Sequence record: PV636258.1
Source: a phage
Strand: one strand, 5' to 3'
Length of the DNA: 64,000 nucleotides
Positions 54,705-59,371 of this stretch are shown one piece after another. The notes beneath the pieces are model-generated. The model saw only the letters and a list, made by a program, of their open reading frames with translations, ran no database searches and was not told where the DNA came from. A program made the translations under genes and the position numbers. Positions within the stretch are counted from its first letter, which is position 1. Every line of letters starts with the position of its first letter.

Positions 54705-54756
54705 GTTGTTCCTCCTTTGGATTCTGTTATAGTTTACCCGAATCCCAACAACGAAA

Positions 54757-54780
54757 AAGCCGAGGCATTAACCTCGGCTT
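54757..54780 (-). terminator. Stem-loop (AAGCCGAGG/CCTCGGCTT)
   Basis: 9-bp perfect inverted repeat with T-tracts on both strands. Confidence 0.5.
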
Positions 54781-54839
54781 TCTCTTTTAGCCTTGCGCCG
54801 CTGCACTGCAGACATGCGCTGGGCCGACGCCTGGTGTGA

Positions 54840-55118
54840 TTACTGGCCGTTGGCAGCAGCTTTCAGACCTTCACCGACTTTGAATTTAACTACATTTTTC
54901 GCTTCGATCTGGATCTGTTGTCCGTTCAGCGGGTTGCGGCCAGTGCGCGCTTCCTGATGTTTAACTTCGAACGCGCCGAAGCCTACGAATTGGACAGATT
55001 GGCCAGCCGCGACTGCAGTTTTCACGCCATTGATAAAAGATGCAACGATTTTCTCAGCTTCGCCTTTGGTCATACCCTGAGTCTGGGCGATGTGAGCGAT
55101 AAAATCAGTACGGTTCAT
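54840..55118 (-). CDS. HU/IHF-family histone-like DNA-binding protein
   Basis: From the ATG at 55118 (GGAG SD): MNRTDFIAHIAQ..., GFGAFEVKHQEARTGRNPLNGQQI, the hallmark HU arm motif; 92 aa. Confidence 0.8.
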   Translation of the reverse strand: MNRTDFIAHIAQTQGMTKGEAEKIVASFINGVKTAVAAGQSVQFVGFGAFEVKHQEARTGRNPLNGQQIQIEAKNVVKFKVGEGLKAAANGQ

Positions 55119-55201
55119 TCGGATTACTCCAGTTGGTTGTTTACGATGTTTCACTACAAGAGGACTACAGCTTACCTAACAAATATTATTGAATAAAGCG
55201 T

Positions 55202-55993
55202 TTATTTGCCGACGTTCAGAATTTTACCTGAGCCGGATCCGTCAACGATCAGAGTACATTTCCCGCTGTTGGCGCAAGATTGCAACACCATGTTATATTC
55301 GTGTTGTAAATATTCAGATGTCAGAGATGTCGTCAGTTTCTGATTCGCCTTGGCTTCTTGGTCGCGAATTTCAACGTTCTTTCTTGCTGTATCCAAACGT
55401 TTGTCAGCCATGACATTATCACGGATAGATTGCTCAATCGAAGGATCTGTCAGCGCCTTTTTCACCAACACGCGTGTGATTGTGAACATGCCAGGCGCAG
55501 CAGTTTCCAATTGCTGCTGGGTGCGTTCCTTGATCATCTTTTCTAACTCAGCCCGTTGGGTGTGAATTGTCATAGAATCCAAAGAAGAAACGGCGTCCAT
55601 CGTTGAGGATGCTGCGGCGGTTTTAACCAGGTTGAATCCCACCGCTATCGTGCCGTCACCGAGTTCAGCGCTCTGACCTGCAAATTTGGTATGGAACCAA
55701 GGAACCTTCGCGACGTTCGGTGTGTAATAAACGTCCACATCCAGATCTTCCAAGGTCAGGTTGTCTTTGGCCTTTGGCGTCATTTTCGTCAGACTCACGA
55801 CGGCTTCTTTAGTCGTATAGACATCTACACTTGAAACGAAACTGGTGTAGATACCTGCGGTTACAGGGTTCATGTCCACTTCACCCCATTGGGTTCGAAC
55901 ACCGACGTTTCCTTCATCGATAACACCGCCGCAGCCTGAAAGAAGGCTTGTTGCTAGGACCATAATTGCGCCAAATACCAGTTTCTTGAACAT
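55202..55993 (-). CDS. Lipoprotein with SPFH/band-7-like domain (tentative)
   Basis: Signal peptide with lipobox LLSGC; following domain GNVGVRTQWGEV...DNLTLEDLDVDVYY is compatible with an SPFH fold; coiled-coil C-terminal half. Confidence 0.45.
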   Translation of the reverse strand: MFKKLVFGAIMVLATSLLSGCGGVIDEGNVGVRTQWGEVDMNPVTAGIYTSFVSSVDVYTTKEAVVSLTKMTPKAKDNLTLEDLDVDVYYTPNVAKVPWFHTKFAGQSAELGDGTIAVGFNLVKTAAASSTMDAVSSLDSMTIHTQRAELEKMIKERTQQQLETAAPGMFTITRVLVKKALTDPSIEQSIRDNVMADKRLDTARKNVEIRDQEAKANQKLTTSLTSEYLQHEYNMVLQSCANSGKCTLIVDGSGSGKILNVGK

Positions 55994-56202
55994 CAATGTA
56001 CTCCTTCAAAAATGTAAATATAAGCACCCAATGTGAGTGCAGTTATTGTAACCGAAGAAATCAGCAGTAGGAAAGTTACTCTCACCCGTTTGCGCCAACG
56101 TTTACTTCGGTAGATTTTAGTCTCTTTCAAGTATTTGAAAAAGAAAAATAAAATGAATGTTGAAATTACGAATATGAACAGATAACGGATTAACCCGATC
56201 AT
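55993..56202 (-). CDS. Small two-TM membrane protein coupled to the lipoprotein gene
   Basis: 69 aa from the ATG at 56202; two hydrophobic helices separated by a K/R-rich loop; stop overlaps the next start. Confidence 0.45.
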   Translation of the reverse strand: MIGLIRYLFIFVISTFILFFFFKYLKETKIYRSKRWRKRVRVTFLLLISSVTITALTLGAYIYIFEGVH

Positions 56203-56519
56203 ATTTCCCACCCTGTGCTACGCAGATGATCAAAATAATCGTTGAGTTCGTCAATATCTTCGATATCAACCCAACGATCATCCAGTCCCATATCATTTAG
56301 ATCTTCTTCAGTCAGATCATGTTGATAAATCTGAATGCCCGAAGCATTACAATAATCCGGCTTGATATTGTTGTTGAACTGGAACAAATCATAATCAGCC
56401 AGAGTATTCTTCAGGCGCTGCGCTTCTTCAAATGTTGGAACCTCAACATGAAAAGCGATCCCAGGAACCTGGGGAATATGCCAAACACGAAATTTAAGTT
56501 CAAATGGTTTATTCGACAT
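56199..56519 (-). CDS. Hypothetical acidic protein
   Basis: 106-aa ORF, ATG start. Confidence 0.4.
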   Translation of the reverse strand: MSNKPFELKFRVWHIPQVPGIAFHVEVPTFEEAQRLKNTLADYDLFQFNNNIKPDYCNASGIQIYQHDLTEEDLNDMGLDDRWVDIEDIDELNDYFDHLRSTGWEI

Positions 56520-57487: not shown

Positions 57488-57508
57488 GGCGGTTTAATAA
57501 TAACCGCC
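57488..57508 (-). terminator. Stem-loop (GGCGGTT/AACCGCC)
   Basis: 7-bp inverted repeat with AT-rich loop. Confidence 0.4.
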
Positions 57509-58364: not shown

Positions 58365-58685
58365 TTATCTTTGATTTCCAACGAAATTAGTTGCAATTTC
58401 ACGGCACATAGTCAGATCTTTAATAGTCTGTTTGCTGTTGTCTGCGGCAGATTCCATCATAGATAAATCAAGCGCATTCTCTATCTGGTCCACACTATAG
58501 AGATCAAGGCGTTTCAATTCACCTTCATAATCAGATAAAAGAATTGATGTATCCTTATCATCCGGATGGAATTGTTGATATGTAGACAACCAAGCAGCAC
58601 AAATATTCAACTTACTGGCCGGAGCTGCCAATACTTGGGAAGACATGAAAGTGCACAGGAATAACAATAAGATTTTGATTTTCAT
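58365..58685 (-). CDS. Small secreted/periplasmic protein
   Basis: 106 aa with N-terminal signal peptide (MKIKILLLFLCTFMSSQVLA); start overlaps the upstream stop. Confidence 0.45.
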   Translation of the reverse strand: MKIKILLLFLCTFMSSQVLAAPASKLNICAAWLSTYQQFHPDDKDTSILLSDYEGELKRLDLYSVDQIENALDLSMMESAADNSKQTIKDLTMCREIATNFVGNQR

Positions 58686-59371
58686 CTTTCGTTCTCCTTC
58701 ATCATATTATCACAGTCAATTCTTGTTTGCTTGAGTTCACGGGAAAGCCTTGGATCATCAAGATTGACAGACAAATTAGTGGAAAGATCTTTCAAACCAT
58801 TCTGAACACGGTCTTCATAATAATGATCATTTTCCACCAGCCATGCTCTCAGGCCAAGGGCGCGAGTCCGCCATTCCTTTTTCAAACGTCGATCAGATTC
58901 TTGATCAGCACTGTATTCAAATACTCGGATACATTGGTTGCCATCATTGATGAGATCCAGCTGACGTCGGCCAACCTGCACACCTTTTTGTAATGCTGGA
59001 GAAGGAAGAGAACGGCACTGTCTTACGGTCATTCGTCCTTGTGTGACCATACGACCAGTCATGATGAGATCGCCAGCCTCCATGCCTCCTCGGTTAAATT
59101 CTTCGTCGTTCATATATCCTTTCAGGTTGAATGCGCCTTGCTTATATCGATTAAACTCGATACCAGCATTTACAACGGCATCTGTGACATTACCTGTGGC
59201 CCAGAGTTCAGCAAAGTTCTCTATGGAACCAGTTTTGTCTATAGCCACGGCTTGGGAGAACCCAGCACAGTAGGAAAGATCAGACCACAGTTTTTCACCT
59301 GTGGAATTCAGCTTGGCTGTGGCAGGAAGTGCCAGACCAGCCAGCACAACCGCGATGATTAAACGTTTCAT
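58682..59371 (-). CDS. Secreted/periplasmic protein
   Basis: From the ATG at 59371 with AAGGAG SD: signal peptide MKRLIIAVVLAGLALPATA; 229 aa. Confidence 0.5.
   Translation of the reverse strand: MKRLIIAVVLAGLALPATAKLNSTGEKLWSDLSYCAGFSQAVAIDKTGSIENFAELWATGNVTDAVVNAGIEFNRYKQGAFNLKGYMNDEEFNRGGMEAGDLIMTGRMVTQGRMTVRQCRSLPSPALQKGVQVGRRQLDLINDGNQCIRVFEYSADQESDRRLKKEWRTRALGLRAWLVENDHYYEDRVQNGLKDLSTNLSVNLDDPRLSRELKQTRIDCDNMMKENER

Follow-up and report, generated by a model that had tools for sequence, protein, structure and literature searches.

A conserved two-helix membrane protein gene beside the SPFH lipoprotein gene of Kutterviruses and other phages

The 64 000-nucleotide (nt) stretch of phage DNA analysed here (sequence record PV636258.1; "the window" below) carries, between positions 55202 and 56202, a pair of genes for a 69-amino-acid (aa) membrane protein and a 263-aa lipoprotein with an SPFH (band 7) domain. 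Over 1.8 kb around the locus the window is 100% identical to Salmonella phage Chennai (Kuttervirus, Ackermannviridae) and 97–99% identical to more than 150 further Kutterviruses, Vi01, CBA120 and Det7 among them. The match to Chennai rules out a T4-type origin, and the T4 frame of reference adopted in a first-pass annotation, which was made from the sequence letters alone, was wrong. That annotation had the two open reading frames (ORFs) and their coupling right: both are present on the minus strand, joined by a TGATG-type junction that is identical or near-identical in relatives. The features of the pair are listed here (AF2, AlphaFold2 model).

55993–56202, minus strand: small membrane protein gene, 69 aa; corresponds to CBA120 orf127A ('hypothetical protein'); PHROG match phrog_11680, 1.2e-46
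56080–56136, minus strand: basic loop K23–R41 of the small protein, with 10 K/R and one E, read from the sequence
55996–56010, minus strand: C-terminal tail F65-E-G-V-H69 of the small protein, predicted periplasmic
56001–56006, minus strand: AAGGAG Shine-Dalgarno sequence, 7 nt 5′ of the lipoprotein ATG and within the end of the small ORF
55991–55995, minus strand: TGATG, 1-nt overlap of small-ORF stop and lipoprotein-gene start, translational coupling
55202–55993, minus strand: SPFH/band 7 lipoprotein gene, 263 aa; corresponds to CBA120 orf126 ('lipoprotein'); PHROGs match phrog_200 'lipoprotein', 3.2e-56
55931–55993, minus strand: lipoprotein signal peptide (residues 1–20) and lipobox L18-S19-G20-C21; the +2 residue is Gly, not Asp
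55367–55924, minus strand: Band_7/SPFH domain, residues 24–209, starting three residues past the lipidated Cys
55268–55444, minus strand: C-terminal helices 184–223 and 226–242 (AF2), which match the coiled-coil wall helices of SPFH cages
55256–55276, minus strand: Cys240 and Cys246 (SCANSGKC), just before the terminal beta-strand (alignments A1 and A3)

SPFH homologues were gathered from metagenomic and viral contigs, and the region directly upstream of each was inspected. The 28 viral loci from outside the Kutterviruses fell into 21 clusters at 60% SPFH identity, and in 19 of these clusters an ORF with two transmembrane (TM) segments lies directly upstream of the SPFH gene. These upstream ORFs encode 55–69 aa with two predicted TM helices, and they either overlap the SPFH gene or end within a few tens of bases of its start. 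The SPFH homologues compared come from divergent phage lineages (26–53% identity), and the background in the same loci is low, with ORFs of 50–75 aa having two TM segments amounting to 13 of 627 (2%). A cyanophage homologue at 27% identity is preceded by a 53-aa two-TM version. In a T4-like contig the two-TM ORF follows rIIA/rIIB and had been overlooked by the gene finder; this contig also encodes a Bax1-I/YccA-type membrane protein (PF01027) ∼3 kb downstream of the module (L007:8578–9270).

Among bacterial genome contigs, the SPFH homologues in phage-like contexts have the small ORF. Since the chromosomal bacterial homologues (five lipobox forms and eight TM-anchored forms) do not have it, the two-TM partner looks like a feature specific to the phage version. 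Two betaproteobacterial contigs from metagenome-assembled genomes (L064 and L080) carry lipobox SPFH homologues of 37–40% identity beside a thiL-like gene, with no two-TM ORF; a bacterial lipoprotein branch of the family therefore exists outside phages. Restriction of the small partner to lipobox forms was rejected as a strict rule, because the SPFH protein of cyanophage S-CREM1 is TM-anchored yet has the small ORF upstream. The SPFH gene of one lineage is directly followed by a gene for a 71-aa protein that has a prepilin-type N-terminal methylation motif (PF07963; L012:2334–2549, L013:1076–1291). The same two domains were noted in the adjacent ORFs 44RRORF097c and 098c in a 2006 T4-like genome paper, and the 71-aa protein may be a third envelope component in some phages.

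The genes next to the pair in the window, and the hairpins that bound its gene block, are as follows.

56199–56519, minus strand: P22 gp17-like gene (PF17420, E = 9e-50), annotated 'superinfection exclusion', upstream of the pair
56199–56202, minus strand: ATGA overlap of gp17-like gene stop and small-ORF start
54840–55154, minus strand: HU/IHF-type DNA-binding protein gene (PF00216, E = 1e-29; annotated start 55118), directly downstream of the pair
57488–57508, minus strand: terminator-like hairpin and T-run, upstream of the block of five to six genes that holds the pair
54756–54781, minus strand: strong terminator-like hairpin and T-run, after the HU-like gene

The gp17-like gene is no fixed partner, being downstream of the pair in the related contigs L083–L086. 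Kuttervirus-related contigs with 78% SPFH identity have the order small ORF, SPFH, gp17-like, LysM, HU and helicase, and the order in the window is gp17-like, small ORF, SPFH, HU and helicase. The pair remains adjacent and coupled while the gp17-like gene changes side.

Within the window the pair sits in a block of overlapping genes between the two hairpins (57508–57488 and 54781–54756), the latter of which is likely the 3′ end of the transcription unit. Another terminator-like hairpin (56024–56040, minus strand; GCACTCACATTGGGTGC then TTATATTTAC) falls within the small ORF, towards its 3′ end and ∼30 nt short of the SPFH start; its T-run is weak and it is probably a chance match. The block adjoins HU, helicase, RNase H and late sigma factor genes. 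In other lineages the same-strand neighbours are helicase, exonuclease, RNA ligase, DNA ligase, clamp loader, DNA polymerase, endonuclease VII and rIIA/rIIB genes, and none of the lineages inspected had the module within a cluster of lysis or structural genes. The T4-type late promoter TATAAATA occurs at two sites in the window, which is chance level, and neither is near the locus. Given the replication-gene neighbours, the avoidance of lysis and structural clusters and the lack of a nearby T4-type late promoter, the module would be expressed early or in the middle of infection.

A few Kutterviruses have lost the module. Phage STP55 has an in-frame deletion of ∼750 nt that takes most of both genes and joins the small ORF at codon 17 to the final 66 SPFH codons; the resulting ORF (L054:2450–2701) encodes 83 aa, MIGLIRYLFIFVITTFI followed by KRLDTARK... 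The SPFH match in GG32 and SeHz-1 covers the last 66 residues only (tblastn), which is consistent with the same loss, and in phage 'bering' a deletion of 25 nt shifts the frame of the SPFH gene (L055:1201–1967). Judged from the match list, the module is absent from other Ackermannviridae genera, for which a comparison published in 2011 has a 'no match' entry (PMC3220722). Since it is deleted or frameshifted in these few Kutterviruses, the module is an accessory function.

The small protein (MIGLIRYLFIFVISTFILFFFFKYLKETKIYRSKRWRKRVRVTFLLLISSVTITALTLGAYIYIFEGVH) starts at an ATG. An upstream GTG would give 72 aa and is missing in several Kutterviruses, so we take the ATG as the conserved start. 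Its hydrophobic stretches span approximately residues 2–22 and 42–65, and its AlphaFold model (mean predicted local distance difference test score, pLDDT, 77) has helices at residues 2–27 and 34–68, in agreement with the two-TM topology and basic loop described in the first-pass annotation. By the positive-inside rule the loop is predicted to be cytoplasmic and both short ends periplasmic (N-out/C-out), with at most five residues of the hairpin exposed at each periplasmic end. The loop is net positive in all 30 tabulated members of the family. A tail motif, an acidic residue and then H/R/G, recurs in many homologues (VDHIL, VERH, LERL, FEH), and this tail may contact the SPFH protein.

Both ORFs are under clear purifying selection. 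In comparisons with relatives at 67–78% protein identity, the small ORF has non-synonymous differences (pN) of 0.16–0.21 against synonymous differences (pS) of 0.64–0.71 and a dN/dS of 0.10–0.17; the SPFH gene has a dN/dS of 0.04–0.12. The small ORF behaves like a translated gene, and because of this selection it is unlikely to be untranslated, a possibility that the first-pass annotation had named as one that would overturn its proposal. Across lineages the small proteins share architecture and not sequence: a basic residue near position 4–6, the net-positive loop and a frequent acidic plus H/R/G end. A sequence search with the small protein returned three close relatives only, and the distant members were located through their position and hydropathy, as sequence search finds few. 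A Pfam scan of 26 members gave scattered matches at noise level only.

The 263-aa protein has the N-terminus MFKKLVFGAIMVLATSLLSGC. The lipobox noted earlier was recovered (LSGC, Cys21), and it is kept in most homologues. The suggested SPFH/band 7 identity was likewise upheld, by a Pfam search above the cut-off, by the AF2 model and by Foldseek. Pfam Band_7 (PF01145) matches at E = 1.1e-12 with 48.7 bits against a cut-off of 23.6, and this domain is precomputed for 51 of 52 homologues, the exception being a truncated 209-aa entry. An NCBIfam scan of both proteins gave nothing usable. In the AF2 model, for which 26 homologues were used (mean pLDDT 83), beta strands begin at residue 22; the model further comprises an alpha/beta core, the helices 184–223 and 226–242 and a short terminal strand. 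The first-pass annotation was thus correct about an N-terminal SPFH domain and overstated the rest, since the supposed coiled-coil C-terminal half is a helical part of residues 184–242, ∼22% of the protein.

A Foldseek search of the Protein Data Bank (PDB) with this model returned SPFH proteins only, aligned across 230–280 columns of full-length cage subunits. The E-values run from 2.7e-13 for prohibitin to 1.3e-8 for QmcA-YbbJ, and erlin, HflK/C, stomatin, flotillin and major vault protein are also matched. The isolated stomatin SPFH domain superposes on the model with a root mean square deviation of 2.5 Å, and viral band 7 proteins in BFVD match the fold at up to E = 7e-20. According to the model, the phage protein would have the entire domain order of ring- and cage-forming SPFH proteins, beyond the core domain, and its helices 184–242 and terminal strand, as modelled in the monomer, are compatible with cage assembly. 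The link to the solved SPFH proteins is visible through Pfam and fold search only: a profile of 26 SPFH family members matched no PDB chain at E≤0.01 in a set that included HflK/C, and when the family was aligned with E. coli QmcA by hhalign, just 28 residues matched, marginally (E = 0.079).

The membrane anchor is predicted to lie directly N-terminal of the SPFH domain, with no disordered tether between Cys21 and the domain. In the TM-anchored relatives the TM helix ends where the lipidated Cys stands here, which suggests that a lipid anchor took the place of a TM anchor with its spacing to the SPFH domain unchanged. All the closer lipoprotein homologues keep Cys240 and Cys246, whereas the distant TM-anchored ones (P0046, P0051 and P0052) lack them; the two cysteines may form a disulfide and would fit an oxidising, periplasmic location.

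Comparison with known systems gives several partial likenesses. The closest in gene arrangement is E. coli QmcA(YbbK)-YbbJ, a cage of 26 heterodimers solved by cryo-electron microscopy (8z5g). There, too, an SPFH gene stands in tight linkage with one that encodes a small membrane protein, the full-length SPFH subunit has the fold of the phage protein (Foldseek E = 1.3e-8) and the partner is expected to occupy the membrane beneath the ring or within it. QmcA is held by a TM anchor, with its cage reaching into the cytoplasm (PMC13086221), whereas the phage-borne system has an SPFH protein predicted to be lipid-anchored and periplasmic. The phage partner also differs from YbbJ, being a two-TM hairpin of 53–69 aa with no NfeD OB-fold and no detectable sequence relation. 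The OB-fold (PF01957) is absent from the small protein, whose 69 aa and two helices leave no room for the domain; Pfam gave no NfeD match to it at E≤0.1 and none to the 26 family members at E≤0.05; and hhalign of the small-family profile (A4) against E. coli YbbJ gave a probability of 0.1% (E = 0.53), which indicates no relation. The first-pass annotation had likened the pair to SPFH-NfeD pairs, and the gene arrangement, present in 19 of 21 lineages, bears this out, whereas homology to NfeD does not hold. Since the partner fails the fold and sequence tests, the phage pair would work like an SPFH-NfeD pair without being one.

The HflK/HflC-FtsH cage of E. coli (7vhq, 7wi3, 9cz2) is similar in that its SPFH domains face the periplasm on the inner membrane, as predicted for the phage protein, and in its order of SPFH domain, long helices and C-terminal strand (fold match E from 1e-12 to 1e-8). 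The phage protein has no N-terminal TM helix, no hetero-pair of SPFH paralogues and no specific sequence affinity to HflK/HflC. T4 Imm (83 aa, two TM) is, like the small protein, a small, dispensable inner-membrane protein encoded by an early gene amid replication genes (between 42 and 43). It has a short loop and a charged C-terminal tail, in contrast to the long basic loop and almost absent tail here; it has no SPFH partner; the PHROG family of the small protein (phrog_11680) is another one; and the two are not homologous (hhalign probability 0.5% against the small-protein family). Other phage SPFH/band 7 proteins, from the T4-like phages 44RR, Aeh1 and RB43, RaK2-like jumbo phages, Schitoviridae GIB1 and phrog_200, belong to the same family and are often lipoproteins. 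Their function is described as unknown or unclear (PMC1524935, PMC7760394, PMC13239085), in papers up to 2026, and none of these reports mentions a conserved two-TM partner gene. PM0222 from a Pasteurella multocida prophage, compared by description only, is an HflK/C-like SPFH protein of 25–35 kDa; it was found in outer-membrane vesicles, signals through TLR1/2 (PMC9872710) and has been studied as a virulence factor and not with phage biology in view.

We favour, with moderate confidence, the interpretation that the pair encodes a two-component membrane scaffold of the SPFH type, specific to phages, produced in early to mid-infection and active in the envelope of the host cell. As its lipobox predicts, the 263-aa protein would be exported and lipid-modified at Cys21, and because the SPFH domain begins three residues after the lipid anchor it would lie flat on the membrane surface, facing the periplasm. 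The 69-aa protein is predicted to form a helical hairpin of the inner membrane whose basic loop is cytoplasmic and whose periplasmic ends are very short. The lipoprotein may oligomerise to a ring or dome like those of HflK/C, QmcA, stomatin and prohibitin, and the hairpin could be its membrane-embedded partner, supplying or occupying the TM part of a fenced patch, as YbbJ does with QmcA or the TM helices of HflK/C. The complex is probably at the periplasmic face of the inner membrane, despite the +2 Gly, since a partner restricted to the inner membrane is best explained if the ring is there too. There is precedent for re-routing: when the disordered N-terminal linker of E. coli outer-membrane lipoproteins is deleted, they go to the inner membrane (bioRxiv 10.1101/2021.01.05.425367).

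The module's role would be accessory, at the level of the envelope and of benefit to the infected cell, and neither lysis nor virion structure. Our guess, by analogy, is that superinfection exclusion or protection of membrane integrity in the latent period is the leading candidate, because an early, dispensable, envelope-directed pair resembles genes of that kind. A more specific proposal, which we hold to be doubtful, makes the pair a minimal phage counterpart of SPFH-NfeD, in which a lipid-anchored periplasmic ring, produced early and held at the inner membrane by a two-TM miniprotein, would fence or stabilise an envelope patch against superinfecting DNA or depolarising abortive-infection effectors.

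Several points weigh against the scaffold. In enterobacteria a +2 Gly predicts Lol-dependent sorting to the outer membrane, and an outer-membrane lipoprotein would be unable to touch an inner-membrane hairpin that barely protrudes. The link between lipobox and partner is not strict, as S-CREM1 and an Acinetobacter phage illustrate; the latter has the lipoprotein with no small ORF adjacent, and its nearest two-TM ORF is two genes away. Gene adjacency may reflect co-regulation and not a complex. Oligomerisation, contact between the two proteins and the final membrane of the lipoprotein are predictions only, the exclusion or protection role draws on analogy and on the annotation of a neighbour that is not fixed, and detection of the protein in phage preparations also fits contamination with outer-membrane vesicles. 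PADLOC-DB had no match at E≤0.1 for the small protein, the SPFH protein or the gp17-like neighbour, and we found no functional study of a phage SPFH protein in the literature.

The sorting signal also underlies the view that these are two independent envelope proteins sharing an operon, with the hairpin acting alone, as an Imm-like DNA-entry blocker or small membrane effector, and the lipoprotein alone on the inner face of the outer membrane, away from the hairpin. T4 Imm works with no SPFH partner, the chromosomal bacterial homologues function with no small ORF, and the Acinetobacter arrangement also speaks for independence. We nonetheless consider independence unlikely. The genes are adjacent, and mostly overlapping or near-abutting, in 19 of 21 lineages against a 2% background; their adjacency outlasts local rearrangement; a single in-frame deletion in STP55 takes most of both; and the small family is unrelated to Imm. 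We think it more improbable that the lipoprotein is an HflK/C mimic, joining or replacing the host HflK/C cage around FtsH and altering FtsH activity to the phage's benefit. FtsH degrades LpxC, sigma-32 and membrane proteins, and YccA is an FtsH modulator; the T4-like contig noted above carries the module together with a YccA-type gene. The predicted fold and orientation agree with such mimicry, with a periplasmic SPFH domain and 9cz2, 7vhq and 7wi3 among the top Foldseek matches; JGI labels several homologues 'regulator of protease activity HflC'; and a similar speculation appears in a Burkholderia phage paper (PMC10269572). Yet the protein has no specific affinity to HflK or HflC, as its family profile has no PDB match at the threshold used, and prohibitin and erlin score at least equally in the fold search. 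The N-terminal TM helix of the HflK/C type is missing, and the HflK/C-FtsH system has no counterpart of the conserved small partner.

A function in lysis, as a spanin-like pair or as a holin/antiholin with its regulator, is very unlikely. An inner-membrane protein and a lipoprotein from overlapping genes superficially resemble Rz/Rz1, the small protein is like a class II holin in size and in its number of TM helices, and spanin-annotated genes lie 2.4 kb upstream on the same strand. However, o-spanins are short and unstructured, whereas the lipoprotein has 263 aa and a folded Band_7 domain, and i-spanins have a periplasmic coiled coil that the small protein does not. Class II holins are N-in/C-in with a charged cytoplasmic C-terminal tail, whereas here the positive charge is in the loop and the tail, five residues long, is no such charged tail; a holin Pfam model, Phage_holin_3_3, touches just one of the 26 family members (E = 0.03). 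In many lineages the neighbours are genes of replication and nucleotide metabolism with no lysis cassette, and natural isolates dispense with the module. The o-spanin-like protein that the first-pass annotation offered as its refuting alternative is rejected on these grounds: length, Band_7 domain, a partner with no periplasmic domain and no lysis cassette. To a place in the virion we give next to no credence. Mass spectrometry recovered peptides of the orthologue in Sajous1 (97% identical; three retrievals; PMC10892097), which speak for expression of the gene, and SPFH peptides were also detected in Erwinia jumbo phage preparations. Against this, a periplasmic lipoprotein exported through Sec and a lipobox cannot enter a capsid built in the cytoplasm, the preparations were crude and yielded few peptides, and the gene lies among early genes and is deleted in viable phages.

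The SPFH identity as such was already known. For the Vi01-like family, a 2011 paper had reported the SPFH domain of this protein (PMC3220722), SPFH was listed for T4-like phages in 2006, and several GenBank records name the lipoprotein 'SPFH domain band 7 family protein'. The conserved two-helix partner appears to be unreported; none of the papers found in our searches mentions a conserved small partner. Phages and giant viruses commonly carry SPFH/band 7 genes, whose products have repeatedly been seen in phage proteomes. With the near-constant partner, what had been an isolated domain becomes a defined unit of two genes that is open to cloning, deletion and imaging. Natural deletion variants (STP55, probably GG32 and SeHz-1, and the 'bering' frameshift) allow simple comparisons. 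Kutterviruses are used for biocontrol of Salmonella and E. coli O157; if the module excludes phages or shields the envelope, it would be relevant to the design of phage cocktails and would widen the known range of SPFH scaffolds by a lipid-anchored, periplasmic form whose partner is not NfeD. Should the fencing and envelope-protection proposal be true, a viral SPFH protein would have its first assigned function, and phages a new class of module for protecting the envelope. Without a phenotype the module stays an ordinary accessory gene.

Two further observations concern the surroundings of the pair. The spanin-annotated genes are an ORF of 106 aa at 58365–58685 (minus strand; phrog_3843), publicly annotated 'Rz-like spanin/o-spanin' and beginning MKIKILLLFLCTFMSSQVLA followed by AP, and an ORF of ∼229 aa at 58682–59371 (minus strand), publicly annotated 'i-spanin' and beginning MKRLIIAVVLAGLALPATA followed by KLN. 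Both have apparent cleavable signal peptides. Their spanin annotation looks doubtful, because a canonical lipobox and an N-terminal TM anchor are missing from both. The other observation is an extra 102-aa LysM gene that ∼51 Kuttervirus records (Vi01, Sajous1 and Mutine included) carry between the gp17-like gene and the small ORF (L055:687–995, L054:2145–2453; insertion site in the window, 56199–56202). It is translationally coupled on both sides and is missing from the window phage and CBA120. RefSeq labels it 'endolysin', and the LysM domain alone is evident in it. We rejected the LysM gene as a replacement of the module, since Vi01 and Sajous1 have both this gene and an intact SPFH gene.

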